Origin: Vicinamibacteria bacterium
Lineage (GTDB): Bacteria; Acidobacteriota; Vicinamibacteria; Marinacidobacterales; Marinacidobacteraceae
Length of the DNA: 64,000 bases
Assembly: GCA_965199715.1 (NCBI GenBank)
Contig: OZ241322.1
Location: forward strand, 704,001 to 768,000
Direction: 5' to 3'
A program made the position numbers and the translations under genes. Positions 17,979 to 61,368 of the stretch are shown piece by piece. Every line of letters starts with the position of its first letter. The first letter of the stretch is position 1. Under the pieces are notes generated by a model. It was not told the DNA's origin and ran no database searches. It worked only from the letters and a program-made list of their open reading frames with translations.

Positions 17979-18023
17979 GCCGGCAGTCTGTCCGAGCCGG
18001 GCGCGTCGGTCAAACTGACGCGG

Positions 18024-19615
18024 ATGCGGGGAGCGGCGGGCCTCATCCTCCTCCTCGCGGCCGGATGCGGAGACGGCTTCGTCCCCGACGGCGCGTGCGC
18101 CTCCTGCCACGCCCAGCAGCACGACGAGTGGTCGCGGTCGCACCACGCGCTCGCCATGCAGGAGGCCACGGAAGCCACGGTTCTCGGCGACTTCGACGAG
18201 GCCCCGTTCCTTCGCCGGGACGGGCGGTTCCTGGTGCGCGCCGACGGGAGAGAGCACGAGGTTCGTTACGCGTTCGGCGTGGAGCCGCTCCAGCAGTACC
18301 TGTTGGAGGCGCCCGACGGCCGCTTGCAGGCCTTCGGGACCGCGTGGGACACGGAAAGGGAGGAGTGGTTCGAGATCTACCCCGGCGAGACGTTCCGCCC
18401 GGGCGACTCCTTCCACTGGACCGGCTGGCGGCAGAACGCCGAGATCGGGTGCATCGAGTGCCACGTCACCGGCTTCCGGATGACGCCGGACGCCGAATGG
18501 AGCGCCCCGAACGTGGGCTGTCAGGCCTGCCACGGTCCGGCGGCCGATCACGTCGCCGATCCCGGCCCCCTCCCCCCGACTTCGGTCGAGACCTGCGCTC
18601 CGTGCCACTCGCTGCGCCGCCCGCTGCTCCCGGACCCCGCCCAAGCGGCCTTCGCCGACGCCTTCGAGCTGGAGCCGCTCGTTCCCGGCGCGTACTTTCC
18701 GGACGGGCAGATTCTCGGCGAGGTCTTCGAGTACGGCTCGTTCGTCCAGAGCCGCATGTACCGGGAGGGAGTGCGCTGCATCGATTGCCACCCGCCGCAC
18801 GGCCTCGGCGAGCGCCTCGTCGGAAACGCGCTCTGCGAGCAGTGCCACCACCCGGACGCCCCGCTCGACCGGTTCCCGACGCTCCGGGCGAAGGACTACG
18901 ACGCGCCCGCGCACCACTTCCACGAGGACGCGCGCTGCGTGGACTGCCACATGACCGAGCGGACCTACATGCAGGTGGACGGGCGGCGCGACCACAGCTT
19001 CCGCATCCCTCGCCCCGACGTCTCCGCGAAGGTCGGAAGCCCGGACGCCTGCACAAGCTGCCACGCGGACCAGAGCCAGGCGTGGGCGGCGGAGCGGATC
19101 GTCGAGTGGTACGGACCCGACCGGGAGCCGCACTTCGGCGAGGCGCTTGCGTCGGGCGGTCCCGAGGCGCTCCGGGCGCTCGCCCGGGACTCCGGCCAGC
19201 CGGAGATCGTCCGGGCGACCGCGGAACGGCTTCTCGGACGGCCCGGTCGCCCCGGAGTGGCGCGGCCGGGCTCGCCCGAAGGCCCCTTCAACCAGGGCGC
19301 GTTCCACGCCGCGTCCGGCGACCTCGAGCGGGCGGCCCGTGACTACCGCGACGCGCTCGCGATCGATCCCGGGTTCCTGCCGGCGAGCCTGAACCTCGCG
19401 GTCCTCCTCGACCGGATCGGAGAGACGGCCGGGGCCGAGAGCGTTCTCCGCGGCGCGCTCCGATTCCATCCCGACTCCGGCGACGTCCACTTCTCGCTCG
19501 CGCTCGCGCTGGCCGCGACCGGGCGGCGGGACGAAGCCCGGTCGCATCTCGACCGGGCGGCGGAGCTCCTTCCGGACGACCCCCGCGTCCGGCGCAACCG
19601 GGCGCTCCTCGGGCG

Positions 19616-19619
<4 letters not shown>
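18024..19619 (+). CDS. Multiheme c-type cytochrome (8 CxxCH) with C-terminal TPR repeats, probable lipoprotein
   Basis: CASCH, CIECH, CQACH, CAPCH, CIDCH, CEQCH, CVDCH, CTSCH; LAAGC lipobox-like motif; TPR-like tail. Confidence 0.85.
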
Positions 19620-20555
<936 letters not shown>

Positions 20556-20575
<20 letters not shown>

Positions 20576-45815: not shown

Positions 45816-46813
45816 CGCGCCGCTTCTGGTTGCGGGCGCTCCCGTGCGCCGGCACGGCCGGGGTCCTGTTCCTCGTCTTCCGCCGGGTCCCGCCGGAACG
45901 GCTGCTCGCGGCCTTCGGCGAGGCCGACCCGGTCCGCTTCCTCGTCGGCCTCGTTCCGGTCTCGATCGCCTACGTCGCCCTCGACTCGGGACTGATGGCG
46001 CAGGTGACGCGCCGCTTCCACCCGCCCGGCCTCGACTGGCGCGACGCCCTGCGGATGCGGGCGGTGGACTACCTGGTGACGCTGTGGAACGGACGCGCGT
46101 CGCAGGCGGCGATCGCGGCGTGGCTCGGCCGCCGCCTCCGAATCGCCCCCGAGCCCGACGGCTCGTGGCTCGAGGCCGCGGGCACGATCCTGTTCCTCGA
46201 CGTCTGCCAGCGCAGCCACCTGCTGCTGTGGGGCCTCGTCGGTTCGCTCGCGCTGTGGGGCGCGGCCCCCCGGCAGGTTCCGGTCGCCGCCGCGATCTCG
46301 CTCGCGGGCGTGGGACTCCTGATCGCGTTCCTGCGCGGACGGCTGCGGCGGGTCCGGCTCGGACCGCCGCGCTGGCGGCTGCTGCGCACGCTGCGCTCGG
46401 CCCGGCTCGCCGACTACGGGCGGGCGCTCCTGTGGAAGGCGCCGCTCATCCTGATCGCGGCGACCGGACACCAGATCGCGCTCGAGGCGTTCTCGGTTTC
46501 GATCCCGTGGACCGGCCTGCTCGCCACGCTTCCGATCATCTTCCTCGCCGGCGCGCTGCCGATCACGGTGGCGCGGATCGGCACCGCCCAGGCGGCGTGG
46601 CTCTACTTCCACGGGGAGGCGGCGGCCGCTTCGGCGGGAGGCGAAGCGGGGCTTCTCGGCTACAGCCTCGCCGCCCACCTCACCTTTCTGCTGCTGAACG
46701 CCGCGATCACCGCGCCCGCCCTGCCGGGCGCTTGGTCCTCGCTGCGCCTTGGCGCTGTTGACGGAGCTTCCGGGAGGTCCGTATCATCATCGACGGGATC
46801 CGTGTCGCCGTGA
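45812..46813 (+). CDS. Lysylphosphatidylglycerol-synthase TM-domain / flippase-like membrane protein
   Basis: Multi-TM protein with an LPITVARIGT motif near the C-terminus. Confidence 0.6.
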   Translation: MTRRFWLRALPCAGTAGVLFLVFRRVPPERLLAAFGEADPVRFLVGLVPVSIAYVALDSGLMAQVTRRFHPPGLDWRDALRMRAVDYLVTLWNGRASQAAIAAWLGRRLRIAPEPDGSWLEAAGTILFLDVCQRSHLLLWGLVGSLALWGAAPRQVPVAAAISLAGVGLLIAFLRGRLRRVRLGPPRWRLLRTLRSARLADYGRALLWKAPLILIAATGHQIALEAFSVSIPWTGLLATLPIIFLAGALPITVARIGTAQAAWLYFHGEAAAASAGGEAGLLGYSLAAHLTFLLLNAAITAPALPGAWSSLRLGAVDGASGRSVSSSTGSVSP

Positions 46814-48702
46814 GTAAGAGCCTCCTGTTCCTTGCGTGCGCGCTGGGCGCCGCGACGGCGGCGGCGCAGCCGCAGGATCCGCACGACGAGCGCGATCGTC
46901 GGGCGGACGCCGCGCACCGGGACGCGGCCGCCGGGCTGACCGCCGCCGAGAAGGCCCGCGAGGCCATCCGCGCCGCCGAACGGCTTCCGGAGGGCGCGGC
47001 CGCGAGCTCCGCGCCGTTCGTCGCGCGGACCGTCGTGGACGAGATCCTCGCCGCCCAGTGGGACGAGCGGGGGATCCCGCGCGCGCCCCGGTCCGCCGAC
47101 GAGGTCTTCCTCCGCCGCGCCACGCTCGACGCCACCGGCCTCGTGCCGACCGCCGACGACATCCGCCGGTTCCTCGACGACCCGTCCCCGGACAAGCGGG
47201 AGCGGCTCATCGACGAGCTCGTCGGCACCGAGGAGTTCGCCGAGCAGTGGGCGTGGTTCTTCGGCGACCTGTTCCGGCTGGCGAGCCAGGTGGGGCCGGT
47301 CCAGCACCCGTTCCAGAGCTGGATCAAGGAGTGGCTGGTCACCGACCGCCCCTACGACGAGTTCGTCCAGGACATGCTGACCGGAGTCGCGAAGGCGCAC
47401 GGCAGCGTGCCGTCGCTGACGCTGCTGGCCCGGTCGCACCAGGCCAAGAGCCGGATCGTGATGAGCCCCGACGACTACTCGATCCACAACCGGCTGGACG
47501 CGCTCGACCAGTTCAACGTGGACGTGTCGCGGGCCTTCCTCGGGATCAACACCTCGTGCGTGTCCTGCCACGACGGCGCGGACCACCTCGAGCCGCTGAA
47601 CCAGTGGCTCTCGGAACGCACCCGCGAGGAGTTCTACCGCCAGTCGGCGTTCCTCGGGAACGCCCGGCTCATCACGACGTGGGACGACCGCAGCAAGAAC
47701 GTCGTGGTCGATCTGCTCGTGGACGACCTCGCGAAGGGTTACGACACCGGGGACGACGCGCCGTACCACACTCTCTCCGAGGGGCGCTTCCCCCGGCTCG
47801 AGGGGCTCGCGTGGGAGCCGGCGTTCATGCTCACCGGCGAAACGCCAAGGCCCGGCGAGAATCCCCGCGACGCGTTCGCGCGGATGCTCACGAGCCACCG
47901 CCAGTTCGCCCGCGCCACGGTGAACCTCGTCTGGGGCAAGCTGATGACGGTCGCGTTCGTCGAGCCGTACAACGCCTTCGACCTCGCCCGGATGGACCGC
48001 CTCCCCGAGGGAGAGGAGGACCCGCTTCCGCCGCGCCCGACGAATCCCGAGCTGCTCGAGGCCCTCGCCGAGGAGTTCGAGGCGAGCGGCTACAGCTTCT
48101 GGAGTCTCGTCAAGACCGTCATGAAATCCGAGGCGTACGGTCTTTCGGCCCGCTTCCCCGGCGAGTGGGACGACGACTGGACCGGCTTCTACCCGAGGCG
48201 CTTCGTCCGAGTGCTGACCGGGCCGGAGCTCGTGGACTCGCTCACCCGCGCCACCGGCGCTCCCGCCGAGTTCAACTTCCGCGGGATCAAGGTCAGCCGG
48301 GTCAAGGAGCTCACCACGCCCCGCGATCTCGGCGGGCGGCGGGGAACCGGCGAGGGCGCGGAGATCGACGCGCTGCTCCAGAGCTTCTTCCAGAGCAACC
48401 GGATGACCCCGGCGCCGGTCGGCAACCGCGGGTCCATCCTGCAGGCGCTCCTGATGATGCAGTCGGGCGTGGTCAACCGGCGCGTGACGAGCGAGTCCGG
48501 CACCCGGGTCGCCGAACTCGTGGAAGCCGATATCGACCACGCCGAAGTCGTCGAGGAGCTCTTTCTTGCGACGCTCGGCCGATTTCCCACGGCGGCCGAA
48601 CTGGACCTGGCCCGGGAGACGCTCGGGGCCGAAGTCGCCGAGGGCGCCGAAAACCTCCAGTGGGCGCTTCTCAACTCGCCCGAGTTCCTCCTGAACCACT
48701 GA
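46810..48702 (+). CDS. DUF1549/DUF1553 (PSD1-type) protein
   Basis: FLRRATLDATG, DKRERLIDEL, CVSCHD, NPELLEALA and WALLNSPEFL motifs. Confidence 0.88.
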   Translation: MSKSLLFLACALGAATAAAQPQDPHDERDRRADAAHRDAAAGLTAAEKAREAIRAAERLPEGAAASSAPFVARTVVDEILAAQWDERGIPRAPRSADEVFLRRATLDATGLVPTADDIRRFLDDPSPDKRERLIDELVGTEEFAEQWAWFFGDLFRLASQVGPVQHPFQSWIKEWLVTDRPYDEFVQDMLTGVAKAHGSVPSLTLLARSHQAKSRIVMSPDDYSIHNRLDALDQFNVDVSRAFLGINTSCVSCHDGADHLEPLNQWLSERTREEFYRQSAFLGNARLITTWDDRSKNVVVDLLVDDLAKGYDTGDDAPYHTLSEGRFPRLEGLAWEPAFMLTGETPRPGENPRDAFARMLTSHRQFARATVNLVWGKLMTVAFVEPYNAFDLARMDRLPEGEEDPLPPRPTNPELLEALAEEFEASGYSFWSLVKTVMKSEAYGLSARFPGEWDDDWTGFYPRRFVRVLTGPELVDSLTRATGAPAEFNFRGIKVSRVKELTTPRDLGGRRGTGEGAEIDALLQSFFQSNRMTPAPVGNRGSILQALLMMQSGVVNRRVTSESGTRVAELVEADIDHAEVVEELFLATLGRFPTAAELDLARETLGAEVAEGAENLQWALLNSPEFLLNH

Positions 48703-48703
48703 C

Positions 48704-50110
48704 ATGAAGAAACCCCGGATCGCCGACGCGCTTCCGGCGCGACGCGACGTCCTCCGCTACGGCGGCCTCGCGCTCGCCGGGACGGTCGCGGGCCAGGCGG
48801 TCTGGCCGCTGCGCGCCTACGCGAACGGGGCCGCGACCCCGAGGCGGACGGCGCGGTACTGCATCTTCGTCGAGATGGGCGGCGCGATCAGCCCGATGGA
48901 CACCTGGGACTTCAAGCAGACCCGCTGGACCCCGCCGGATCTGGACATGGTCCAACTGAGCGACGAGGTCTCGCTCTCCCGGACGCTGTTTCCCCAGCTC
49001 GTCCATCGCATGGACGAGGTCGCGCTCGTGCGCTCGATGCGCGCTCCGGAGCTGATCCACTTCAACGGGCAGTACCACACGCAGACCGGGCGAGTGCTGA
49101 ACGTGGCCCTCGCCCGCGAGATCCCGGCGTTCGGGAGCGTGATCGCCGCCGAGCTGGACCGGGAGCGGCGCGAGCGCGACACCTTCCCGACCTACGTCAG
49201 CACCTACCTGACGCGGGCGCGCGCCGGCTCGATCGGCGCCGGGTTCCTGCCGACGCGCTTTTCCGGGCTCGACCTCGACCCGACCACGGTGTTCGACGCG
49301 TTCGGCGGGAACGTGGACGGAAGCCTCAAGGTGCTCGAAGAGCGCTTCCGGCTGCTCGGCCAGCTCGCCGAGATCTCGGCGCCCGAGCGCGCGTCGCTGG
49401 GCCGCCGGGCGTCCGACTACCGCGACTACTACCGGTCGGCCTACGCGCTGCTCACCGACCCCCGCTGGCCGCAGTTGTTCCGGGCGACCGGCGACGACCG
49501 GGAGCGCTACGGCGCGGACGAATTCGGGCTCGGTTGCATCCTCGCCCGCAACCTCATCGAGGCCGACGCCGGCACGCGGTTCATCTACATCTACGACGGC
49601 GACAAGTGGGACCACCACGCCGGCATCTTCGACCGCTCGCGCAAGTGGAACCACTACACGACCTGCCCGAGGCTCGACAAGGGATTCGTGGCGCTGCTCG
49701 ACGACCTCGGCGCGATGCCGGGGACCGAGCCCGGAACCACGGCCCTCGACGAGACGCTGATCGTGGTCACGAGCGAGTTCGGGCGCACGCCCGACATGAA
49801 CCCCGTGCTCGGCCGGGACCACTATCGCGAGGCCTACACGACCATGTACGCCGGCGGCGGGGTCCAAGGAGGGCGGGTGCTCGGCAAGACCAACGAGGAC
49901 GGATCCGAGGTCATCGACCCGGGGTGGAGCCATGACGGCCAGCCGTTCATGGACAACACCGTCGCGACGATCTACTCGGCGCTGGGGATCGACTGGCGCA
50001 AGTCGGTCACCAACACCCCCTCGGGGCGGGAGTACCTGTACGTGGACTCCATCGCGCTGGGCGCCTCCGAGATGATGTTCGACGACGAGATCGCCGGAAT
50101 CTTCAAGTAG
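48704..50110 (+). CDS. DUF1501 domain protein with Tat signal
   Basis: RRDVL Tat-like motif; GGAISPMDTWD, WDHH, EFGRTP and GRDHY motifs. Confidence 0.88.
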   Translation: MKKPRIADALPARRDVLRYGGLALAGTVAGQAVWPLRAYANGAATPRRTARYCIFVEMGGAISPMDTWDFKQTRWTPPDLDMVQLSDEVSLSRTLFPQLVHRMDEVALVRSMRAPELIHFNGQYHTQTGRVLNVALAREIPAFGSVIAAELDRERRERDTFPTYVSTYLTRARAGSIGAGFLPTRFSGLDLDPTTVFDAFGGNVDGSLKVLEERFRLLGQLAEISAPERASLGRRASDYRDYYRSAYALLTDPRWPQLFRATGDDRERYGADEFGLGCILARNLIEADAGTRFIYIYDGDKWDHHAGIFDRSRKWNHYTTCPRLDKGFVALLDDLGAMPGTEPGTTALDETLIVVTSEFGRTPDMNPVLGRDHYREAYTTMYAGGGVQGGRVLGKTNEDGSEVIDPGWSHDGQPFMDNTVATIYSALGIDWRKSVTNTPSGREYLYVDSIALGASEMMFDDEIAGIFK

Positions 50111-50116
50111 CGGTCC

Positions 50117-50920
50117 TTGCTGCTCGCGCTCCTGCTGTTCGGGGCGGGAAGCGCCGCGGAACCGCACTGCACCGACGATCGGACCGAGGACATCTGCTGG
50201 ATCGCGGGCGGCGAGTTCTGGATGGGGCGCACGCACCTGTGGCTCATCGACGAGATCGGCTGGCAGACCCGCGACCGGGTGGACGACCGGCCCGTCCACC
50301 GCGTCCACGTGCCCGGTTTCTGGATGGACCGCGCCGAGGTCACCCAGGAGGCGTACCGCCGGTTCGCGCAGGCCACGGGGCGCGCCGAGCCGTTCCACTG
50401 GCGGCAGGGGTTCCCCGAGGAGGCCGCCCGCCGCCCGGCGTACAACGTGACGTGGGAGGACGCGGCGGCGTACTGCGCGTTCCGCGGCAAGCGCCTTCCC
50501 ACCGAGGCCGAGTGGGAGAAGGCCGCCCGGGGCCAGGTTGACGGGGCGCCGTACCCGTGGGGCCTCGAGTTCGCGCCGGACGACGGGGACGGCCCCCCGG
50601 CGCGAGTGGGTCATCCGCACGGCCCGGCCGACGTCGGCTCGTACCCGGCGAACGGATACGGCCTGTTCGACATGATCGGGAACATCGCCGAGTGGGTGGC
50701 CGACAGATACGATCTCGGCTATTACGCGGTGAGTCCGGTCGAGAGTCCCAAGGGGCCGGCCGAGGCTCCCTACCGGGTGTTCCGCGGCGGAAGCTGGGCG
50801 GACGCCGACGAACGCATCACGTCCGTGTTCTATCGGAACTTCACGAGGCCGGACACGACCATCCACAGCATCGGGTTCCGGTGCGCCATGGACCATCCCG
50901 AAGGGGAGACGACACGATGA
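50117..50920 (+). CDS. FGE-sulfatase (SUMF1/EgtB/PvdO) domain protein
   Basis: RLPTEAEWEKAARG, NGYGLFDMIGNIAEW, RGGSW and IGFRC motifs. Confidence 0.88.
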   Translation: MLLALLLFGAGSAAEPHCTDDRTEDICWIAGGEFWMGRTHLWLIDEIGWQTRDRVDDRPVHRVHVPGFWMDRAEVTQEAYRRFAQATGRAEPFHWRQGFPEEAARRPAYNVTWEDAAAYCAFRGKRLPTEAEWEKAARGQVDGAPYPWGLEFAPDDGDGPPARVGHPHGPADVGSYPANGYGLFDMIGNIAEWVADRYDLGYYAVSPVESPKGPAEAPYRVFRGGSWADADERITSVFYRNFTRPDTTIHSIGFRCAMDHPEGETTR

Positions 50921-51882
50921 GCGAGAACCGCATCGGCCGGCGCCGAGCGATCCAGGGCCTCGCGGCGGGAAGCGCCGCGATCGCCGGCGGCGTCCGCGCC
51001 GCGCAGTCCGCATCGGGCGACATGGGAACCCGCTTCCAGGAGATGCTCGCCGGGCCGGATCCCGTCATCTGTCCGGGGGCCTTCGACGCCATCTCGGCGC
51101 GGCTGATCGTCGAGAACGGCTTCGACGCCGTGCTCATCGGCGGCAGCGCCGGCTCGGCCGCGAACCTCGGCGTGCCCGACTACGGGCTCGCGTCGATCAC
51201 CGAGCTCATCGAGGTCTCGGCGCGGATCGCCGACTCGGTGCCGGTTCCGGTCTTCGCCGACGCGGACGACGGCGGCGGCAGTCCGCTCGCGGTGGCGCGG
51301 GCGACGCGCGGCTTCGAGCGCGCCGGCCTCGCCGCGATGATGATCGAGGATCACGTGCAGGCGAAGCACCTCGGCGAGGGCGGCGTCCTCGTGGACGCTC
51401 CCGGCATGCAGGACCGCGTCCGCGCCGCCGCCGACGCGCGATCCGGCGGCATGATGCTGGTCGCCCGCTGCGACGCGGTCTCCATCGGCCTGAGCGAGGC
51501 GGAAGCCATCGACCGGGGCGCGGCCTACGTGGAAGCCGGCGCGGACCTCCTCTTCTTCGCCGGACTCGCGCCCGAACGCCTCGGCCCGGTCTCGCAGGCG
51601 TGCGGACGCCCCGCCATCGCGAGCGTCCACGACACGCCCATGGAGACGCTGCGGGAGAACGGCGTGCCGCTGGTCCTCTACGCCGGGCAACTGCTGCGGC
51701 TCGCGCTCGGCGCGATGCAGCGCGGGCTCGACGACATCAAGAACGGGGCGACGTGGCCCGGCTACGCCGAGCGGGCCCTTCCCGGCGACGCCTACCAGCG
51801 CCTCATCCGCTCGGGCGAGTGGCGAGACCGCGCCCGCCGCTACAACCTCGTGAACGCCTCGGGCCGCCAGACTAGGGGCTGA
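50917..51882 (+). CDS. Isocitrate lyase/PEP mutase family protein with Tat-like signal
   Basis: PGAFDAISAR, ADADDG, IEDH, ARCDA and AGADLLF motifs; N-terminal GRRRAIQGLAAG. Confidence 0.8.
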   Translation: MSENRIGRRRAIQGLAAGSAAIAGGVRAAQSASGDMGTRFQEMLAGPDPVICPGAFDAISARLIVENGFDAVLIGGSAGSAANLGVPDYGLASITELIEVSARIADSVPVPVFADADDGGGSPLAVARATRGFERAGLAAMMIEDHVQAKHLGEGGVLVDAPGMQDRVRAAADARSGGMMLVARCDAVSIGLSEAEAIDRGAAYVEAGADLLFFAGLAPERLGPVSQACGRPAIASVHDTPMETLRENGVPLVLYAGQLLRLALGAMQRGLDDIKNGATWPGYAERALPGDAYQRLIRSGEWRDRARRYNLVNASGRQTRG

Positions 51883-52095: not shown

Positions 52096-52130
52096 TGTGA
52101 GCTTGCCCCGCTTTCGTGGACAGTTGACTA
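52096..52130. mobile_element. Possible isolated IS3-family terminal inverted repeat
   Basis: TG...TGCCCCGCTTTCGTGGACAGTTGA resembles IS3-family ends recalled from memory; no transposase nearby. Confidence 0.3.
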
Positions 52131-52225
52131 TTTTGGATCCGCGGCGTGACGCGAGCTTCGTTCCCGCCGCCGGGCCGTGTTCCCGAGAGCCGGCCCCGCT
52201 GACGCGGACCGCTTCGAGAGCGAGG

Positions 52226-55117
52226 TCACACTCGGCGACGCGGGCGGCCCCGAGACCGGAACCGACCGCCCGGATCGGCGAGGTTGCGTCTCCGCGCCTC
52301 GGCCCGAAGCGCCGCGCCCGCACCCCGCCAGGGGTGCGGCGCGCAGGGCCGAGGCCCGTCGCCCGCTCGTCCCGCGGCTGCGCTCCCGACCCGCTCATGC
52401 CAGACGGTCAGGCGGCCATCGGTCTCGGGGTCCCATGACTCGTCCAAGTCTTCCGGCCGCAGGAGCCACACTTCGCCGCCCTTGGACTTGAGGACGCCAG
52501 CCTCGTCAAGCCCGTCCACGCTCGTGTTCTTCGCCTTGGTGAGAGTCTCGGCGATGCCGTAGTCCCCCCGGTCGAACCCGAACTGCTCGAACCACGCGAG
52601 CGCCCAGCGGGTGTCCGCGTCGAAGTCGCCCTCCTGCTCGGCGAGCACCTCGTCGAGCGTGCGGTTGATCGCGGCGAGCGCCTCCCGAACGGACATGGCG
52701 TTCCCCTCGGCGTCGAGCACCTTCCCGTAACGCGTGTACACGGCCATGCCCGGACCGATGGCCGCCTGCGCCAGATCCACCGGGGCGACGTTGCCCGACT
52801 GGAGCAGCCGAAGGGCCTGCGGAAGCTCGGAACGAAGCTCGGTCAGGAACTCCCGCCGGGTGGCGGCCGGGGCGTCGTCAGGGCGGCGCCGGCAGACCAG
52901 CACGATGGAGGAGGCGAGGGCGGCAATGTTCTTCTTGAGATTACCCGTCAGTTCGGTGCGCATCGGCCACGTACCGGTGATGGCGAATCCAGAGTGGATC
53001 GCAGCATCAAGGAAAATGTCCCAAGCCGTACTGGCCACTCCACCCTCTGCATTCCGCTCAGCTTGTTTGAAAGCGTAGTAAATCGTCACGGGGAAGTCTG
53101 GGTGTGTACGTGCTGAGATCTGTCGGAGTGCCTTCTTCATGCCTGCAAGAAAAAAGGCTTCGGCGGCCTCCCGGCTCCCATGCCGGTATGGAGTCGCCAC
53201 CAACTCCCTAGCTTTCGGCACTGCGAGCGTCGCCATTAGCTCTCCAAATCCCGATTTCAGGGAGCGCCGCAGCCAGACATAGAAGAAATCGGAGAGATCG
53301 GCGTATCCGATGTTGTCGTAATACGGCGGGTCGGTCGAGATCACAACCGTGTCAAGGTCCGGAGTTCCTGCAGCGGCGTCAAACTGACCTGCGAAACCGG
53401 GACGACAGGCGAGCACGGCCACATCCACGACTTTGGTCAGATAATCGACTTGACCTCTGAAGTTCCCGCTGGACGTGCTGAACGGATTGGCCTCGCAATA
53501 GGACCACACCATGGGGAGGGCTTGGCGAGCGAACACCTGTTGCACGTTGCCGGCGCCAGAGTCCCAGAACGTCAGCGTGGAGCTACGGTTGGCTTGGCGG
53601 CCAACTGATAGTCCAAGATACAGGGACGCCGCCTCGGCGTAGGCCGTCGCGCCGAGGCCGCCGTCGCGCAGAGGGCGGTCGTCGTCGGGGAGGCCGGCCG
53701 AGGCGGCGTCATCCCGGATTCGCGCGCGGGCCTCGCCGACGAGGTCCGAGAACGTCGTCAGGGCCACGAGCTGGCGATCAGTGAAGAGGTCGCGCCACTG
53801 AAGCATCCCGTATTCCTGAACCCGAAAACCGAGAGCTCTCTGGGGGAGATCGGTGTCCGGCTCCCACGCCGGCGCCGCGTTGCGGGCTGCCCGTTCCTGC
53901 GCCGTGGTCGGAGTCAAGTACACGCGGCCGCGGTCGCCCTCCGCGACGACCGCGAGGAGGCGCGAACCGAGACGGCCCGCCTTGCCTTCCCCCCGCAGGT
54001 AGTCGAACGGCATCGGCGAACCGGAGATGAGGCATTTGAACGGACTCCCGCTTCCCCCTACCTTGGTCCCGCGCTTGATCCCCCCGTCCGTCGGGGGGCC
54101 GACGCGCACGCGGAACCGATAGTCCCGGCCCTCGACCGCCGGCTCCACCCACGCCTCCTTCCCCTTCTTCGTCGACAGCATGAACGTCGACGCCAGCGGA
54201 ACCTCCACGTCACCGAACGCCGGGTTCGGGCTCCTTACCGTCCGCGCCCACAGCCACGCGATCACCGTCAGCTCCCGCCCCTCGTACGCCTTCAGGTCCG
54301 GACGCTCCCGAACCATCTCCGCCGTGACCTCCACCTTCGGGTACAGACGGCCGATCCGCTTCTCCGCCTCGTCCCGCATCCACTTCCCGTAGTACCGGAC
54401 GTCCTCGGCGAGGCCGGTCGCTCCCGGCCACGCCTTCGCAACCACCGTCTGCTTCGCCCGGGAGTCCGGGTTCACCGGCGGCCTCCCCGCGAACTTCGGC
54501 GGGATCTCGATCATCGCCTTGTTGATGAGCACCGCCACCGGGTTCAGGTCGGAGGCGTGCGCCTCGAGGCCGAGCCGCTGCGCCTCCAGCGGCAGCGCCC
54601 CGCCCCCGGCGAACGGATCGTGGAAGGCCGGGAGCCGGTTGCGGTCGAAGAGCTCGTCCGCCCGGGGGTGGTCCGCGTTCTCGGCGCAGGCCCTTCGCCA
54701 GCTCTCCCGGATCTCCGCCCGCGCCGCCTCCAGCACCGTCTCGTTGGCCGTGTTCTCCCACTTGACCAGGTCCTCGACGATGCGGAACAGCCGCCGGCGC
54801 TCCCGCTCGGCGGCGGCCTCGGCCAGCGCCGTCGGCGTCGCCTCCCGCCCCCGCTTCTTCAACTCCCGCCTCGCGGCCGCCCGCGTGGGGCCGTCCGACA
54901 GCAGCGCGTCCGCGTACTCCGACGGGTCGTCCACCATCTGCGCGAAAATCACCGCGCGGGCCACCGCCAGCGGCTTGCGCGACCACCACAGGTGCAGCGT
55001 CGAGGGGTGGCCGTGGCGGATCGACTTCTCGCGGGCGCCGGCGGCGTTGATCTCGTCGAGCGGCAACGCCACCTCGATCAGCTTGCGGCGATGACGGGGG
55101 GAGTCCGAGGCGGCCAT
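52226..55117 (-). CDS. DUF1156 adenine-specific DNA methyltransferase, copy A (3'-truncated; homology ends at 52400)
   Basis: [25 protein letters not shown] (SAM binding) and TDPPYYD (catalytic); lacks the last ~83 codons present in copy B. Confidence 0.88.
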   Translation of the reverse strand: MAASDSPRHRRKLIEVALPLDEINAAGAREKSIRHGHPSTLHLWWSRKPLAVARAVIFAQMVDDPSEYADALLSDGPTRAAARRELKKRGREATPTALAEAAAERERRRLFRIVEDLVKWENTANETVLEAARAEIRESWRRACAENADHPRADELFDRNRLPAFHDPFAGGGALPLEAQRLGLEAHASDLNPVAVLINKAMIEIPPKFAGRPPVNPDSRAKQTVVAKAWPGATGLAEDVRYYGKWMRDEAEKRIGRLYPKVEVTAEMVRERPDLKAYEGRELTVIAWLWARTVRSPNPAFGDVEVPLASTFMLSTKKGKEAWVEPAVEGRDYRFRVRVGPPTDGGIKRGTKVGGSGSPFKCLISGSPMPFDYLRGEGKAGRLGSRLLAVVAEGDRGRVYLTPTTAQERAARNAAPAWEPDTDLPQRALGFRVQEYGMLQWRDLFTDRQLVALTTFSDLVGEARARIRDDAASAGLPDDDRPLRDGGLGATAYAEAASLYLGLSVGRQANRSSTLTFWDSGAGNVQQVFARQALPMVWSYCEANPFSTSSGNFRGQVDYLTKVVDVAVLACRPGFAGQFDAAAGTPDLDTVVISTDPPYYDNIGYADLSDFFYVWLRRSLKSGFGELMATLAVPKARELVATPYRHGSREAAEAFFLAGMKKALRQISARTHPDFPVTIYYAFKQAERNAEGGVASTAWDIFLDAAIHSGFAITGTWPMRTELTGNLKKNIAALASSIVLVCRRRPDDAPAATRREFLTELRSELPQALRLLQSGNVAPVDLAQAAIGPGMAVYTRYGKVLDAEGNAMSVREALAAINRTLDEVLAEQEGDFDADTRWALAWFEQFGFDRGDYGIAETLTKAKNTSVDGLDEAGVLKSKGGEVWLLRPEDLDESWDPETDGRLTVWHERVGSAAAGRAGDGPRPCAPHPWRGAGAALRAEARRRNLADPGGRFRSRGRPRRRV
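53616..53791. repeat. Inverted repeat block C2, left arm (176 bp)
   Basis: 3 mismatches against the reverse complement of 59713-59888 (hand count). Confidence 0.92.
54081..55090. repeat. Inverted repeat block C1, left arm (pairs with about 58430-59436)
   Basis: Near-identical reverse complement over about 865 bp (54081-54945 vs 58571-59436); more diverged in the first ~140 bp of the genes. Confidence 0.92.
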
Positions 55118-55127
55118 CGCGGCTGGA

Positions 55128-56204
55128 CTACCGGCGGGCCGCCGCGGTCAGGAACACGCGCGCGCCGTCAACCGCCGCGACGAGGCGATCCCCGGGCGCG
55201 AGGCCCGCCGCCGCCACGACGCTCGCGGGCAAGGTCACCTGGTTTCCGGCGCGAAGCCTCGTGACGCGCATCGCCGCCGCCTTTCGCCGATCAAGCGGTC
55301 GGATTGTACGGCCCGCGGTCCGCGAGGGAGCGGTTCCGGCGAGAAGCGCGGACACCGCGCTTCCCACGCGCTCCGCCGCCGCCTCGACCTCCTTGTCGCT
55401 CACGTGCGCGTAGCGCATGGTCATCCGGGGCTGGGCGTGCCCGAGCAGGCGCGAGACGACCGGCAGCGGCACGTCGTTCATGACCGCGTGGCTCGCGAAC
55501 GTGTGGCGGAGGTCGTGGAGGCGAACGTCCGGGATTCCCGCCGTTCGCCTCACCTTCCGCCACAGCGAGAGTTCGGCGGCGCGGGGACGGGTGGGGTCCG
55601 AGAGCGACGGGAACGCGAACTCGCTTCCGGTCCGCGGCTGCCGCGCGAGGATCGACCGCGCCCGGGCGTTCAGGACGACCGTGCGCGGGCCGGTCTTGGC
55701 GTCGGCGAGGCGGAGGGAGTCCTCCCCGACCTCGGACCAGCGCAACCCGACGATCTCGCCCTTCCGGCAGCCGGTCAGCAGGAGCAACCGGATGATCTCG
55801 GCCTGCTGCCGCCCCGAGCCGCGTCCCCGGTGCGCGTCCAGCGCGGCGAAGAGACGCCGGATCTCGTCCCGCGACAGGAAGCGGGTGAGCCTCGGGCGCG
55901 GGTTGGGCCGCACGCCCCGGGTCGGGTTCTTCCCGACGTGGCCGCAGGCGACGGCGTGGTTGAAGATCTGGCGCAGCACGTCGAGCGTCCGGTTCGCGCC
56001 CGCCGGGGCGGTCGCCCCGTAGCGGTCGAACCACCGCAGGACGTCGCGGCGGCGGACGCGGTCCAGCCGCCGCTTCCCGAACGCCGGCAGCAGCTGGGTC
56101 CGCAGCGCGCTGTCCATCCGGACGCGAGTGGAGGGCTTGCAGCGCTCGTAGCACGCCGCTCTCCATTCCGTCTCCACGAAGCGTCCGAACGCGGGCGCGG
56201 TCAA
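55128..56204 (-). CDS. Tyrosine recombinase with C-terminal AbrB/MazE-like domain
   Basis: TGCRKGEI, DAKTG, RLHDLRHTFAS and LLGH...TMRYAH motifs; in-frame tail MRVTRLRAGNQVTLPASVVAAAGLAPGDRL (55128-55271). Confidence 0.9.
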   Translation of the reverse strand: MTAPAFGRFVETEWRAACYERCKPSTRVRMDSALRTQLLPAFGKRRLDRVRRRDVLRWFDRYGATAPAGANRTLDVLRQIFNHAVACGHVGKNPTRGVRPNPRPRLTRFLSRDEIRRLFAALDAHRGRGSGRQQAEIIRLLLLTGCRKGEIVGLRWSEVGEDSLRLADAKTGPRTVVLNARARSILARQPRTGSEFAFPSLSDPTRPRAAELSLWRKVRRTAGIPDVRLHDLRHTFASHAVMNDVPLPVVSRLLGHAQPRMTMRYAHVSDKEVEAAAERVGSAVSALLAGTAPSRTAGRTIRPLDRRKAAAMRVTRLRAGNQVTLPASVVAAAGLAPGDRLVAAVDGARVFLTAAARR

Positions 56205-57082
56205 GACCGCGGGTCGAGCGCGGCTCCGACGGCCTCGGCCGCGTCGCGGATCATCGGGTCGGCGACGTGGGCGTAGCGGAGCGTCGTCGAGGGCTCGAGG
56301 TGCCCCAGCAGCCGCCCGATGGTCAGCAGCGTCTCGCCCCGGCGCAGCGCGAGGCTCGCGAAGCTGTGGCGCAGGTCATGGAGGCGGAGGTCGGGAAGGC
56401 CCGCCTCGTCCCGGACTGCCCGCCAGCAGCGGTAGAGGGTCTCGTCGGCCATCGCGCCGGCGCCGCCCGGAGCGGGGAACGCCCAGTCCGCGGTTCGCGG
56501 CACGGCCTCCAGCAGCGACCGCGCCTCGGAACAAAGCCAGACGGCGCGCGGCCCGACCTTGCCGTCGCGAAGATGCAAGTGCCCTTCCCGGAGCTCCGAC
56601 CAGCGCAGGGTTCGGATCTCGCCCTGCCGGCAGCCGGTCAGCGCCAGCAGGCGAATGACCGCGACCGGAAGCGGCGCGACGTCCCGTGAGCGGTCGAGCG
56701 CCATCCCGAGCCGCCGGAACTCCGCGTCGGTCAGGAACCGGGACCGCCCGCGCTCGCGGAACCGCTTCAGCCCGACGCAGGGGTTGCTGTCCTCCGCGCG
56801 GTGGCCGTAGAGCTCCGCCTGCCGGAGGATCACCGACAGGATGGGAAGCGACCGATTCGCCGCCGCCGGCGTGTCCCGAAGTCCCGCGAACCAGCGCTCG
56901 ACCTCGCCGCGGTCGATGTCGGCGACGGGGCGATCCCGGAACCACGGCAGGATCCGGCAGCGCAGGTACGCCCGGTTCACCTTGGCGGTGCGGGGCTTCC
57001 AGCGGGAGCCGTATCGACGGAAGACCTCCTCGGCGACGGCCTCGAAGAGGGGGCTGCGGGGTCTGGTACGGTTCGCCGGCAT
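56201..57082 (-). CDS. Tyrosine recombinase (no arm-binding domain)
   Basis: TGCRQGEI, DGKVG, RLHDLRHSFAS and LLGH...TLRYAH motifs; ATG at 57082; 4-bp overlap with the next recombinase. Confidence 0.9.
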   Translation of the reverse strand: MPANRTRPRSPLFEAVAEEVFRRYGSRWKPRTAKVNRAYLRCRILPWFRDRPVADIDRGEVERWFAGLRDTPAAANRSLPILSVILRQAELYGHRAEDSNPCVGLKRFRERGRSRFLTDAEFRRLGMALDRSRDVAPLPVAVIRLLALTGCRQGEIRTLRWSELREGHLHLRDGKVGPRAVWLCSEARSLLEAVPRTADWAFPAPGGAGAMADETLYRCWRAVRDEAGLPDLRLHDLRHSFASLALRRGETLLTIGRLLGHLEPSTTLRYAHVADPMIRDAAEAVGAALDPRS

Positions 57083-57251
57083 GAGAGCGGGAGCGATCTT
57101 GCGCCGCACTCCGATGCGGGTTCGGGGGCGCCGCCGTCGGGGCGGACGTCCAAACCGCCGGTGTTGATGCAAGGCGAGGGCGCGGCGGCTCGAAATTCGC
57201 TCACGGGGACACCCCCTGCCGAAGCGGAGTCCAGCCGGGGGACGTCCGCTC

Positions 57252-58394
57252 GTGTCTGAGCTTCGAGCACTTCTCGAACAGATTCGGCGTGGTATTGCGG
57301 ACGACGCCTAACCCAACGAGAGCGCGGTTGGCCACCAAGTCGTAGTTCCGGTGCTGCGCACGCTCGGATGGAACGTGGAGAGCCCGTCCTTCGTGCGCCA
57401 TGAGTTTCTGCTGAGGCTAAAGGACACGACGCGAAGAGTGGATTTGGCGCTTTGCGTATCCGGCGATAACCCACGTTGCATCATAGAGTTGAAAGCAACC
57501 GGGAAAGCGCTGAACGCCGCCCGCGGTCCAAGCGCGGAACATCAAGTGTTCGAGTACGCGTTCTTCGCAGGTGCGCAATTGGCGGTCTTGACGAACGGAG
57601 CCGAATGGCGCCTCTACTCTGCGCAGAGCTTCGGCCGTATTGAGGAGCGGCTCGTATGGGCGGTCAACGTCTCCAATGACTCGCCGGACGTCGTCGCGAG
57701 CGGCTTCGAGCGCTACCTCTCCTTCGCCAATGTCGCGTCTGGAGACGCCGCGGATTTCGCCAGAAGGGATCTGCGGGTGCGGCGTGACCAACAGGAGGCG
57801 AGACAGTCGATTCCGGACGCTTGGGATCAGCTCTGCCACGGCGACGCAAGCGATGTCTTGGTGGATCTCGTGAGGGAGGCGACGTCCGCGCTCGCCCAAG
57901 GCGAGCCCCGACGGGAGGACGTCGTCGCCTTTCTGCACGGGTTGACGCAACGCCCGGCGCGTCGCAAGGTTCGGAAGCCGAAGCCCGAGCCGGGCGCGCC
58001 GCGAGAGCCGCGACCCGAATGCGAGGAGAGGCGTCTCGGAGGCGGTTCAGGTTCGGTCCGTTACTCGCTCTTGGGCGAGGAACGCCGGGCCAAGAACTTC
58101 ACCGATGCGTACGTTGACGCGTTCCGAGCCTTCGCCGGTCGCGATCCGAGTTTCGTGGATCGAGCGGACCCGAGGCTTCGCGGTCGGAAGAACCGCGTCG
58201 TCGCTCGAACGAAGGAGGAGCTGGCGGAGAATTCTCAAATGAGGTCCACGGCCAGGGAGTTGCCCGGAGGTTGGTGGCTGCTGACCAAGATGAGTAGCAA
58301 GCAGAAACAGCGAGTCCTTCGAACGGCGTGCGGGACAGCCGGCATCCCGTTCGACGATCCGGCCGGGTTGAAGATCGGCGACCCGAGCGCTTGA
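57252..58394 (+). pseudogene. HsdR_N-like PD-(D/E)xK nuclease with SeqA-like C-terminal domain; in-frame TAA at 57309-57311
   Basis: Reads VSELRALLEQIRRGIADDA*PNESAVGHQVVVPVLRTLGW; VDLAL...IIELKA, QVFEYA and LTNGAEWRLY motifs. Confidence 0.7.
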
Positions 58395-58429
58395 AGGGGC
58401 GCTTCAAGGGCCGCGCCAGAATCATGGGA

Positions 58430-59436
58430 AGGAAGCTGATCGAGGTCGCCCTCCCGCTCAAGGCGATCAACGAGGCCTCGGCTCGCGAGAAGTCGATCCG
58501 CCACGGCCACCCGTCCACCCTGCATCTCTGGTGGGCGCGGCGGCCGCTCGCCGCCGCGAGGGCGGTGATCTTCGCGCAGATGGTGGACGACCCGTCGGAG
58601 TACGCGGACGCGCTGCTGTCGGACGGCCCCACGCGGGCGGCCGCGAGGCGGGAGTTGAAGAAGCGGGGGCGGGAGGCGACGCCGACGGCCCTCGCCGAGG
58701 TCGCGGCGGAGCGGGAGCGCCAGCGGCTCTTCCGCATCGTCGAGGACCTGGTGAAGTGGGAGAACACGGCCAACGAGAAGGTGCTGGAGGCGGCGCGGGC
58801 GGAGATCCGGGAGAGCTGGCGAAGGGCCTGCGCCGAGAACGCGGACCACCCCCGGGCGGACGAGCTCTTCGACCGCAACCGGCTCCCGGCCTTCCACGAT
58901 CCGTTCGCCGGGGGCGGGGCGCTGCCGCTGGAGGCGCAGCGGCTCGGCCTCGAGGCGCACGCCTCCGACCTGAACCCGGTGGCGGTGCTCATCAACAAGG
59001 CGATGATCGAGATCCCGCCGAAGTTCGCGGGGAGGCCGCCGGTGAACCCGGACTCCCGGGCGAAGCAGACGGTGGTTGCGAAGGCGTGGCCGGGAGCGAC
59101 CGGCCTCGCCGAGGACGTCCGGTACTACGGGAAGTGGATGCGGGACGAGGCGGAGAAGCGGATCGGCCGTCTGTACCCGAAGGTGGAGGTCACGGCGGAG
59201 ATGGCGCGGGAGCGTCCGGACCTGAAGGCGTACGAGGGGCGGGAGCTGACGGTGATCGCGTGGCTGTGGGCGCGGACGGTAAGGAGCCCGAACCCGGCGT
59301 TCGGAGACGTGGAGGTTCCGCTGGCGTCGACGTTCATGCTGTCGACGAAGAAGGGGAAGGAGGCGTGGGTGGAGCCGGCGGTCGAGGGCCGGGGCTACCG
59401 GTTCCGCGTGCGCGTCGGCCCCCCGACGGACGGGGG
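58430..59436. repeat. Inverted repeat block C1, right arm
   Basis: Reverse complement of 54081-55090. Confidence 0.92.
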
Positions 59437-59712
59437 CACGAAGACAGGGACAAAGGTCGCCCGAGGCAGCTTCCGGTGTCTGATGTCGGGAGTTCCCATC
59501 CGGTACGAGTACGTCCGGCACGAGGGCAAGGTCGGGCGGATGGGATCGCGGATGCTCGCGATCGTGGCCGCCGGAGATCGCGAGCGCGTGTACTTCGCCC
59601 GACGCACATACGCGGCCGGCGGAAAGCAGTGCGACCCCGTGGAAGCCTGACTGTGAGATGGGGACATGAAGCATCGGAACTTTGGGTCCCGTCTATGGAC
59701 TGGACGTTCGGG

Positions 59713-59888
59713 GACCTCTTCACTGATCGCCAGCTCGTGGCCCTGACGACGTTCTCGGACCTCGTCGGCGAGGCCCGCGAGCGAATCCGGGATGACGCCG
59801 CCTCGGCCGGCCTCCCCGACGACGACCGCCCGCTGCGCGACGGCGGCCTCGGCGCGACCGCCTACGCCGAGGCGGCGTCCCTGTATCT
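59713..59888. repeat. Inverted repeat block C2, right arm (176 bp)
   Basis: 3 mismatches against the reverse complement of 53616-53791. Confidence 0.92.
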
Positions 59889-61349
59889 CGCGTTCGTGCT
59901 CAGCAAACAGGCTGACCACGGCAATGCGCTGTGTACTTGGGGGCCTTTGGACCAGCGTCATTATCACCTGTTCGGGCGTCAGGCGATCCCCATGGTGTGG
60001 GACTTCGCCGAAACCAATTTCTTCTCCGATTCTGCGGGGAGCGTGACGAGCGGTATCCGTTGGTCGGTCGAGTGTCTCAAGCGTCTTCCCGCACATCTCC
60101 GTGGAGGCGGCGTCGGGCGCGAAGCCCAAACGCAGGGACTGAGCCAGGACAAGGTCGTATCGACCGATCCGCCGTATTACGACAACATCGGCTACGCCGA
60201 TCTCTCGGACTTCTTCTACGTCTGGCTGCGTCGCTCCCTAAAGGGAGTGTTTCCGGATCTATTCTCAACTCTAGCGGTGCCCAAAGCAGCTGAGCTGGTA
60301 GCAACCCCGTATCGCCACGGAGGTCGAGACGTGGCAGAAACATTCTTTGTTGACGGGATGTTTCGGGCGCTTTGTCGGCTAGCTGAACGTACGCACTTGG
60401 GCTTCCCAGTAACCGTCTATTATGCCTTCAAGCAATCAGAAACTAAGAGAGACGAAGGTACTACAAGCACCGGTTGGGAGACGTTCCTGGGTGCCGTCAT
60501 TCGATCTGGCTTCACGGTTACGGGAACATGGCCGATGCGCACCGAGCGGAGCGCTCGGACGACGGCCATTGGCGCCAACGCGCTCGCCTCGTCCATCGTG
60601 CTGGTCTGCCGGCGGCGGCCCGACGACGCTCCGGCCGCGACCCGCCGCGAGTTCCTGACCGAGCTTCGCGCCGAGCTTCCCGGCGCCCTGCGCCTGCTCC
60701 AGTCGGGCAACGTCGCCCCGGTGGACCTGGCGCAGGCCGCCATCGGTCCGGGCATGGCCGTGTACACGCGCCACGGGAAGGTGCTCGACGCGGAAGGAAA
60801 GACCATGACGGTTCGGGAGGCCCTGGCCGCGATCAACCGCACGCTCGACGAGGTGCTCGCCGAGCAGGAGGGGGACTTCGACGCGGACACTCGCTGGGCG
60901 CTCGCGTGGTTCGAGCAGTTCGGGTTCGACAAGGGCGACTTCGGCGAGGCGAACACGCTGGCCAACGCGAAGAACACCAGCGTGGACGGCTTGGACGAGG
61001 CCGGAGTCCTCAAGTCGAAGGGCGGCGAGGTGTGGCTGCTGAGGCCGGAGGATCTGGACGAGTCGTGGGATCCGGAGACGGACCGACGCCTGACCGTCTG
61101 GGAGGCTGTCCACCACCTCGTCCGTCGCCTCGACAAGGACGGCGAGGCGGGCGCCGCGGAGGTCGTCGCCAAGCTCGGCGGTCGTGCGGAAGCGGCCCGC
61201 GAGCTCTGTTACAGCCTCTACACGCTGTGCGAGCGGAAGCAGCGGGCCGCCGAGGCGCGCGCGTACAACCGGCTGGTCCAGAGCTGGCCCGAGATCGCGC
61301 GGCTGTCGGAGTCCGCGAGGCACCGACAGGCGTCCGTTTTCGGAAACGA

Positions 61350-61368
61350 CTGAGCGGGGGCCGCTCAG
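61350..61368 (+). terminator. GC-rich hairpin at the stop codon of DUF1156 copy B
   Basis: CTGAGCGG-ggg-CCGCTCAG perfect 8-bp stem; no U-tract. Confidence 0.3.

Follow-up and report, generated by a model that had tools for sequence, protein, structure and literature searches.

An inverted pair of DUF1156 methyltransferase genes around two tyrosine recombinase genes: a probable, partly decayed copy of a recurrent shufflon module in a Vicinamibacteria bacterium

The locus described here raises the question of whether a bacterium changes the target of a DNA methyltransferase by inverting parts of its gene. It lies in a 64,000-nucleotide (nt) stretch of the genome of a Vicinamibacteria bacterium (GenBank assembly GCA_965199715.1, contig OZ241322.1, positions 704,001 to 768,000), which we call the window and whose own numbering is used for positions given without a contig or locus. 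Two outward-facing hmaB genes, coding for DUF1156 methyltransferases and here called A and B, stand head-to-head with two tyrosine recombinase genes, REC1 and REC2, and a nuclease-like gene, NUC, between them. We consider it probable that the locus is a copy of a conserved, horizontally spread shufflon module made of an inverted hmaB pair and two tyrosine recombinase genes. The window's copy is atypical and partly decayed, and programmed inversion of hmaB at this locus is supported indirectly. A preliminary description of this DNA had proposed an invertible shufflon with up to four specificities. The shufflon has indirect support in the architecture, in the occurrence of both orientations across genomes and in the reassortment of cassettes at two conserved blocks (C2 and C3, below); the figure of four does not hold.

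The two genes are alike block by block. A repeat search of the window, whose GC content is 0.64-0.77 per kb, found four inverted-repeat pairs that jointly align 52400-55084 with 58433-61101. Block C1 pairs 54060-55084 (A, minus strand) with 58433-59457 (B, plus strand) over 1025 nt at 95% identity, and its core, from ~54950 down to 54100, reaches 98-100% in 50-nt windows. Block C2 pairs 53616-53791 (A, minus strand) with 59713-59888 (B, plus strand) over 176 nt at 98%; a weaker middle block, the DPPY block, pairs 53058-53338 (A) with 60160-60440 (B) over 281 nt at 70%; and block C3 pairs 52400-52922 (A, minus strand) with 60579-61101 (B, plus strand) over 523 nt at 87%. The names C1, C2 and C3 denote these repeat blocks, and the assembly contigs are always written contig C1 and contig C2. 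In the stretches that separate the conserved blocks, a sliding comparison gave 34-68% identity per 50 nt. These stretches form three variable regions (VR). VR1 of A (53792-54059, minus strand) is intact and codes for residues ~346-441, and VR1 of B (59458-59712, plus strand) is decayed and of the same allele type as VR1 of QL, a copy elsewhere in the genome, whose indels differ. VR3 and VR2 of A (52923-53615, minus strand) are parted by the DPPY block, with the DPPY codons at 53321-53332 (residues 596-599). The corresponding VR2, DPPY block and VR3 of B occupy 59889-60578 on the plus strand, where VR2 (59889-60147) is 100% identical to VR2 of QL; VR2 is ~260 nt long. As judged from these alignments, the block-wise likeness of A and B is far beyond chance, and C1 and C2 are candidate crossover sites. 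The features named in the preliminary description were all found where it had placed them: the paralogues face outward, domain matches confirm two tandem tyrosine recombinases and a nuclease gene between them, and the repeat search and the 50-nt sliding comparison confirm that near-identical C1 and C2 alternate with divergent segments. It had also treated VR2-3 as one divergent segment; the divergence holds and the unity does not, since VR2 and VR3 are separate cassettes around the DPPY block.

Both genes code for HmaB, the methyltransferase of the anti-phage defence system Hma (alias type-1 BREX-related), which further comprises the helicase-nuclease HmaA and the DUF499 ATPase HmaC (PMC11232893, PMC12839542). 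Copy A (52226-55117, minus strand) matches the PADLOC HmaB profile PDLC00660 with E=0 and 1350 bits over profile positions 7-885 of 967, and Pfam DUF1156 with E 6.5e-26; with motif I DPFAGGG and DPPY it belongs to the DUF1156-type N6-adenine methyltransferases. An equation with the NCBIfam equivalog DUF1156_antiphage was ruled out (112 bits vs a cut-off of 1000). A has an intact frame through residues 1-907 but lacks ~80 residues that are conserved at the C-terminus. Homology to hmaB stops at 52400 (residue 907), and the last 56 codons of the open reading frame, to 52226, are a junk tail derived from a 305-nt repeat (52097-52401) that is associated with an insertion sequence (IS). A second, 96% identical copy of this repeat at 568412-568725 of contig C1 matches residues 904-963 of A at 95%, and an IS3-type transposase gene (HTH_21+rve; L009:2720-3568, minus strand) adjoins it. 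A further 50-nt fragment of the repeat lies at 1696819-1696868 of contig C1. The span of 55117 to 52400 given earlier for A is therefore correct for the hmaB homology, and the open reading frame itself runs on to 52226 through the repeat.

Copy B (58424-61353, plus strand) has its C-terminus and is full length, but it is a pseudogene. The frame opened at 58424 terminates at a stop codon at 59648-59650, and the remainder of the gene is in another frame. Along the homologous path, a three-frame reading and the five-copy DNA alignment gave two frame changes, near 59596 and near 59700, and a TGA at 59667-59669; tblastn with A recovers B in two frames, and the reading of B from the genome search contains 2 TGA. 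All lesions fall within 59590-59715, ~130 nt of VR1, and the other ~1650 nt are open. The N-terminal 408-residue piece of B exists as a separate protein in public records (P0126). The C-terminal 83 codons (61102-61353, plus strand), which are conserved in full-length homologues, are present in B and not in A, which gives the locus its size asymmetry of 907 residues for A vs ~990 for full length. In the assembled state the locus holds no intact full-length hmaB. Of the two methyltransferase genes previously claimed, A stands with a frame intact to residue 907, and B does not stand as an intact gene.

The three genes between the two copies are intact. REC1 (55128-56204, minus strand; Phage_integrase, E 2.1e-22) has its stop 10 nt before the start of A and overlaps REC2 (56201-57172, minus strand; Phage_integrase, E 1.4e-15) by 4 nt. 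Residues R147, K170, H230, R233, H256 and Y265 of REC1, which we take to be the catalytic residues of tyrosine recombinases, are invariant in 7/7 homologues. XerC and XerD are likewise paired, paralogous tyrosine recombinases, and by this analogy the tandem arrangement of REC1 and REC2, which are ~44% identical, suggests a heteromeric enzyme with one subunit acting on each half-site. Unlike XerC/XerD, the pair scores far below the NCBIfam Xer cut-offs (79 bits vs 279-335), and no dif-like site was identified for REC1/REC2. A C-terminal extension of ~50 residues in REC1 (55128-55270) has a weak MazE/AbrB-like match (E=0.0013) and is present in some homologues only; REC1 was matched to residues 341-354 in L031, L032, L059 and L099. 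NUC (57351-58394, plus strand) has an HSDR_N N-terminus (E 2e-7) and is also found in the two sister loci of this genome, P and Q, and in L062 and L094. According to the gene coordinates, the intergenic region at 57173-57350 separates the REC2-REC1-A genes from the divergent NUC-B genes, and it is presumed to be the promoter region.

If the arrangement is a unit with a function, it should be found elsewhere, and it is. Matches to A occur in 25 of the 41 genomes of the order, the source genome included, and in 21/24 within the family. In all four relatives examined, HmaA/HmaC, a truncated inverted hmaB, REC2-REC1 and a full hmaB occur together, and the C1/VR1/C2/VR2/(VR3)/C3 mosaic is present in 5/5 within-genome pairs (G003, G008, G002, G014 and locus P). 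A scan based on a REC1 alignment, with one genome per species, gave 72 loci, of which 71 passed the REC1 filter and were scored by script; L101 (REC1 only 42% identical) was dropped, though inspection by eye shows a truncated and a full copy there too, and the relatives found through matches to A, which may overlap the 72, were not added to the counts. A head-to-head hmaB pair surrounds REC2-REC1 in 34 of the 71 scored loci. Among these, 26 combine a full with a truncated copy, the full one standing on the left in 14 and on the right in 12; two full copies are paired in 2 loci and two truncated copies in another 2, and contig ends interrupt the remaining 4. In 24 of the 26 loci of the first group the truncated copy stops at residues 797-811 (full copies, ~990), and HmaA and/or HmaC lie within the fetched stretch in 24 of the 34 head-to-head loci. 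These counts suggest that the module is a conserved unit, with a truncated copy whose outer end is fixed just past C3. A recurrence of inverted DUF1156 pairs flanking tyrosine recombinases, which the preliminary description had regarded as a way to check its proposal, is thus seen in the four relatives, in locus P and in the 34 loci. The misassembly of two strain alleles, which it had named as a possible refutation, is not borne out, because the same architecture and mosaic recur in other assemblies.

The 72 loci come from records named as Acidobacteriota (several orders), Gemmatimonadota, Binatia, Verrucomicrobiae, and Gamma- and Alphaproteobacteria. Many of their isolate names resemble sponge metagenome bins, and the sequencing runs that hold the window stretch are labelled sponge metagenome. 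The recombinase tree mixes Verrucomicrobiae, Binatia, Gemmatimonadota, Pseudomonadota and several acidobacterial orders, a topology that indicates probable horizontal transfer of the module. A scan of metagenome contigs with REC1 gave 5 loci, with the module in L026 only. Two genomes of the same family, G011 and G006, have 36 and 17 hmaB matches, many of them half-length pieces in tandem or nearby, which points to putative cassette arrays much larger than that in the window.

The source genome itself (2.66 Mb in two contigs) has five DUF1156 matches. The window locus lies in the middle of the 2.35-Mb contig with unique sequence on both flanks. Locus P (6.6-16 kb of contig C2) has two full-length copies, PL and PR, placed head-to-head, and its REC1-REC2-NUC set is 80% identical to that of the window. 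Locus Q, at the end of contig C2, consists of HmaA, an embedded AAA_21+DUF4276 pair, a HEPN-DUF499 HmaC and then the inverted copy QL, which stops at residue ~800 and has many frameshifts in VR1; after QL follow REC1, REC2 and NUC, with proteins 100% identical to the window's, and there the contig stops. The sole full-length HmaA match of the genome is at 294407-297811 of contig C2, and its sole DUF499 match, also on contig C2, matches HmaC PDLC00662 with E=0. The embedded pair, an AAA_21 ATPase gene and a DUF4276 gene (L008:9328-11039; PADLOC HEC-01 A/B), stands between hmaA and hmaC. After each full-length hmaB of locus P there is a gene for a 360-residue GmrSD_C (DUF1524) + Excalibur protein (L007:5568-6647 and 15996-17075), which may be a modification-dependent nuclease partner.

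We aligned the five copies (A, B, PL, PR and QL). All five share block C1 at 95-100% identity. QL agrees completely (100%) with A over the first ~1 kb, the C1 block, and with B over C2 and VR2, and its VR3 is unlike that of either. The 3' part of A (C3) is 93-100% identical to PL and PR, vs 80-94% to B. Even where the recombinase genes of two loci are only 80% identical, their blocks agree at 98-100%. On this alignment, segments clearly appear to have been exchanged among the hmaB copies, with breakpoints at the conserved blocks.

The same breakpoints are found outside this assembly. The protein P0006, from an independent 18-kb contig, equals A in residues 1-503 except for 2 substitutions, with a VR1 100% identical to A's, and again in 733-949 except for 1 substitution, a stretch that takes in the IS-derived tail by which this genomic site can be recognised. 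Only about half of the residues from 503 to 733 agree with A; the swap begins at the end of C2 (~503), and the VR2-VR3 region is 94% identical to PL, 61% to A and 65% to B. In a Logan contig of run X8, VR1-A and C2 (3 differences in 581 nt) are followed by a foreign 259-nt VR2, which is neither A's nor B's at 95% likeness, and then by a block 89% like B's DPPY block. In run X1 the depth is 66 for VR1-A, 12.5 for VR2-3-A and 64-74 for the flanks, and another contig, with a different VR2 between C2 and the DPPY block, has a depth of 47. The raw reads of X10 contain a VR2 start that is absent from this genome. Taken together, the data from P0006, X8, X1 and X10 suggest that in nature the assortment of VR1 is independent of that of VR2-3, the breakpoints being C2, the DPPY block and C3.

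Reassortment concerns the cassettes, and inversion concerns the segment between the copies. Between syntenic flanks (HmaA-HmaC, truncated copy, full copy), the recombinase pair runs one way in G003 and the opposite way in G008 and in locus Q. Of the 26 full-plus-truncated loci, 12 have the pair facing the full copy and 14 have it facing the truncated one. When 21 of these loci were placed on a REC1+REC2 tree, the orientation state required at least 5 changes, with a mean of 7.3 after shuffling; L045, L063 and L068 were omitted because their recombinase match was below the length/identity filter, and L046 and L047 were omitted as one locus in two states. The latter two are the first and last ~19 kb of one record titled chromosome, and the same ~15-kb Hma locus is present at both ends. 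Their flanks are in the same order and the central ~8 kb is inverted, at 95-98% identity with many small gaps, and the crossover lies inside 1.1-kb arms that cover residues ~440-797. The simplest reading of this record would be an untrimmed circular overlap assembled from reads of both states.

The source assembly shows related irregularities. Positions 1-7847 of contig C2 mirror 14796-22642 (L007), the flank beyond locus P, with 0 differences in the first 6.5 kb; all 165 differences lie past position 6500, within the methyltransferase 3' part. The mirrored flank carries the GmrSD_C+Excalibur gene, a beta-eliminating lyase gene and more. Such a start is either what is expected of a walk through an inversion-polymorphic locus (assembly fold-back) or a real giant inverted repeat. 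At the other end, the last ~4.3 kb of contig C2 (L008:15500-19912) is identical to window 54100-58338, and the contig ends just before the expected right-hand hmaB. The depth of the window's inner segment in X5 and X1 amounts to about one copy per genome, so that contig C1 and contig C2 may describe alternative neighbours of one segment. Single-locus and two-locus models that join contigs C1 and C2 were tried, and none fitted all depth figures. The window locus is flanked by a phosphoenolpyruvate (PEP) mutase gene and an SbcC-like gene, which lie far from each other in two genomes of the same genus, G001 and G003; this places the locus at a synteny breakpoint or rearrangement point. The left flank (46810-51882) codes for DUF1549/DUF1553 and DUF1501 proteins, an FGE-sulfatase-type enzyme and the PEP mutase.

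To relate the variable regions to the protein, we used a structure model built from 103 sequences (pLDDT 92.6, pTM 0.93); an earlier model from 26 close homologues was poor (pLDDT 59) and was not used. In the model, core strand 1 (residues 164-167) is followed by motif I and strand 2 (186-190), a large alpha+beta insert extends to ~573, strands 3 and 4 occupy 574-578 and 591-595, and DPPY (596-599) follows; the core continues to ~753, with helical C-terminal domains beyond. VR1 (346-441) and VR2 (504-590) are predicted to lie in, or to end, the insert between core strands 2 and 3, and VR3 (621-732) would make up the latter half of the catalytic core, two loops of lower confidence included. In DUF1156 methyltransferases the insert between core strands 2 and 3 is described as the target-recognition insert, with helix-turn-helix-like domains following at the C-terminus (PMC12839542). 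A search for solved homologues gave 0 matches by sequence profile in the PDB and 0 at E<=0.001 by fold. The family-wide entropy is 2.41 bits in VR1 and 2.33 in VR2 vs 1.97 in C1 and 1.60 in C3, a modest separation.

We propose the following mechanism. REC1 and REC2 would act on the near-identical blocks inside both coding sequences (C1, C2, the DPPY block and C3) and would invert the DNA between paired blocks, moving VR1, VR2 and VR3 between the copy with the C-terminal DNA-binding domains and the copy without them. A crossover in C1 would flip the recombinase/nuclease segment alone and change which copy is downstream of which genes. A crossover in C2 would swap VR1, one in the DPPY block would swap VR1 and VR2, and one in C3 would swap all three cassettes. 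Only the copy that adjoins the fixed C-terminal codons would be full length, the other serving as a store, and the outcome would be a changed methylation target. In the window, the full-length side has the dead VR1-B and the IS-truncated copy has the intact cassettes, so that inverting once, at C2 or C3, would yield an intact full-length gene. For the same locus, the claim of up to four VR1 x VR2-3 specificities fails, because VR1-B is dead and the C-terminus is present only on B's side. The dead VR1-B may be an OFF allele or simple decay.

A wider version of this proposal is tentative and, in our view, rather unlikely to hold as a whole. In it, the module would be a cartridge for switching specificity that is complete in itself and moves horizontally; sponge symbionts of several phyla would have received it, its recombinases would act as a heteromer, dead cassettes would serve as OFF alleles that turn the defence on and off, and exchange between copies would drive large chromosomal rearrangements. 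Such exchange would explain why the ends of contig C2 and the synteny breakpoint fall in loci of this kind.

Several observations weigh against a switching shufflon. At the locus itself, no read or contig with the inversion was found, although the repeats, at 176-1025 nt, exceed what Logan contigs (k=31) and 150-nt reads can phase; in particular, the raw reads of X10 have no strand-changing joint, which neither supports nor refutes inversion, since 150-nt reads are shorter than the repeats. The orientation states are somewhat clustered on the recombinase tree (31-35 of 500 shuffles were as low as 5 changes), and its well-supported branches force only at least 2 changes. A scan of synonymous-codon entropy in 24 genes from different genomes found no DNA site that stands out as sharply conserved. 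Homologous recombination by the host could also act on repeats of this size (176-1025 nt) and give rise to such mosaics. The inner segment has 0.8-1.5 times the flank depth though it was assembled twice, and the A-specific cassettes have ~0.3 times the flank depth in X5; only a minority of genomes may have the assembled arrangement, or several forms or strains, this one among them, may co-exist. Genome-wide HmaA and DUF499 searches placed no HmaA or HmaC in the window or beside the locus. Copy A is ended by an IS-associated repeat and not at the module's usual end near residue 800. VR1 of B has three lesions and VR1 of QL many more, which argues that part of the cassette set is decaying rather than maintained. 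Finally, 23 of the 71 recombinase-pair loci, mostly alphaproteobacterial, have no hmaB nearby, and no flanking inverted repeat of at least 40 nt was found in any of three such loci examined, so that the recombinase pair is not dedicated to a role with hmaB.

The last of these points bears on an explanation that we consider unlikely, in which the hmaB copies evolve in concert, exchanging segments by homologous recombination or gene conversion under diversifying selection, and the recombinases are mobile-element integrases that invert nothing. The hmaB-less loci are what a mobile element would leave, with several on one contig (L073, L083 and L085). In these loci and in L077, L078 and L080-L093, the REC2-REC1 pairs are 57-67% identical to the window pair with no hmaB within 6 kb; there are several per genome, mostly in records named Alphaproteobacteria, and they suggest a putative origin of the pair in a mobile element. 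Integrases near 19.1% of hmaA homologues have been read as signs of mobility (PMC11232893), and the phylogeny of the module cuts across phyla. Identical blocks are common to the window locus, P and Q, and not only to partners within a locus, and the cassette type of P0006 is that of a copy at another locus, PL. However, gene conversion alone does not flip recombinase genes relative to their flanks, and the inner segment is found in both orientations between conserved flanks, with both states in one record. Nor would concerted evolution account for an inverted pair that recurs in 34 loci with the recombinases always between the two 5' ends, or for a truncated copy that ends so uniformly in 24 of 26 loci.

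It is still less probable that the window locus is a dead remnant, a decaying duplicated or translocated fragment of the Hma locus on contig C2 that neither switches nor methylates any longer. The three lesions of B, the truncation of A at the IS-associated repeat, the position at a rearrangement point away from any HmaA or HmaC, and the low depth of the A-specific cassettes in X5 would all be expected of such a fragment. Yet the frame of A is open and homologous for 907 residues, the recombinase and nuclease genes are intact and code for proteins 100% identical to those of the contig C2 locus, and the 98-100% identity of C1 and C2 implies recent exchange; the lesions of B are confined to ~130 nt, with the other ~1650 nt in frame. 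Moreover, this explanation bears on the present state of the window's copy and not on the identity of the module. An assembly artefact, in which the alleles of two strains were joined or a long read folded back, is highly improbable: contig C2 does begin with an exact 6.5-kb mirror and end in a stretch 100% identical to the window's inner segment, which was assembled twice at a depth of about one copy, but the locus lies in the middle of a 2.35-Mb contig with unique flanks, A and B differ as a structured mosaic, individual segments are present in Logan contigs from three studies, the same architecture is found in dozens of independent assemblies, including single-contig chromosomes, and an artefact could change the placement of cassettes without calling the module into question.

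The shufflon module, our preferred reading, has relatives among known systems. Type I hsdS shufflons, such as Mycoplasma pulmonis hsd, are one group. In the hsdS shufflons with a tyrosine recombinase, pneumococcal SpnD39III/ivr with PsrA (PMC4948785, PMC7096588), inverted repeats lie within the specificity coding sequence, the modules are recombinable and the tyrosine recombinase is encoded in the locus, as here, and a switch of methylation specificity is likewise expected. They differ from the present locus in that the shuffled gene is a separate specificity subunit and not the methyltransferase itself, in that the silent copies have no promoters and 5' ends, whereas both copies here have 5' ends, and in the two recombinases found here.

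Further parallels are the programmed inversions of BREX type 1 pglX (for example in Lacticaseibacillus rhamnosus), DISARM drmMI and type IIG genes (Milman et al. 2023, PMC9881135). In the systems described in that paper, as in the present module, a defence methyltransferase gene is accompanied by an inverted partial copy, in-gene repeats and a recombinase gene beside them; the middle, recognition-determining part is exchanged with the termini kept constant, nested inversions serve an internal part, and intermediates after one inversion have no C-terminus, as copy A here. The present target is a different one, a DUF1156 methyltransferase (Hma / type-1 BR), a family not named in the passages of the paper that were consulted. 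Further differences from the systems described there are that two tandem tyrosine recombinases are present instead of one, that the recognition region would be an insert inside the catalytic domain, and that the partial copy, which has no 3' end, begins with a 5' end and start codon of its own. As a result, promoters and the 5' ends of both copies would lie inside the invertible segment.

The link to Hma is direct in sequence: copy A matches the HmaB profile with E=0, contig C2 holds HmaA and HmaC beside a sister locus, and the AAA_21+DUF4276 pair there resembles the two-gene insertions in Halomonas hma operons (PMC11232893). Unlike Hma, the window locus is without HmaA, the SNF2 helicase-nuclease, or HmaC. 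Term searches of the main texts of the Hma papers PMC11232893 and PMC12839542 found no inversion, shufflon or phase variation, and literature searches found no paper that ties DUF1156 or Hma to inversion; these searches did not cover the supplements of PMC9881135, PMC11232893 and PMC12839542, which may list DUF1156. The earlier statement that no switch had been described for a DUF1156-type methyltransferase therefore agrees with the literature found, and the concept itself is known from PglX, DrmMI and type IIG genes (PMC9881135). The features that stand out are the two recombinases, the retention of the 5' end by the partial copy, and the distribution over sponge symbionts of different phyla.

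These features matter because Hma / type-1 BREX-related systems are widespread and their methyltransferase is barely characterised: 2525 cluster representatives are related to the A-type methyltransferase at E<=1e-30, and type-1 BREX-related systems are reported in 3592 taxa (PMC12839542). There is also a practical problem, in that loci of this kind break or fold back long-read assemblies. If the switch is confirmed, Hma would join hsdS, PglX and DrmMI among the defence modules that vary their self-mark, and alleles that differ only in defined cassettes would be a natural handle for mapping the DNA-reading part of a DUF1156 enzyme. It would also suggest that one defence-diversifying cartridge is common to sponge symbionts of different phyla, with consequences for how phage pressure and gene flow in sponge microbiomes are understood.

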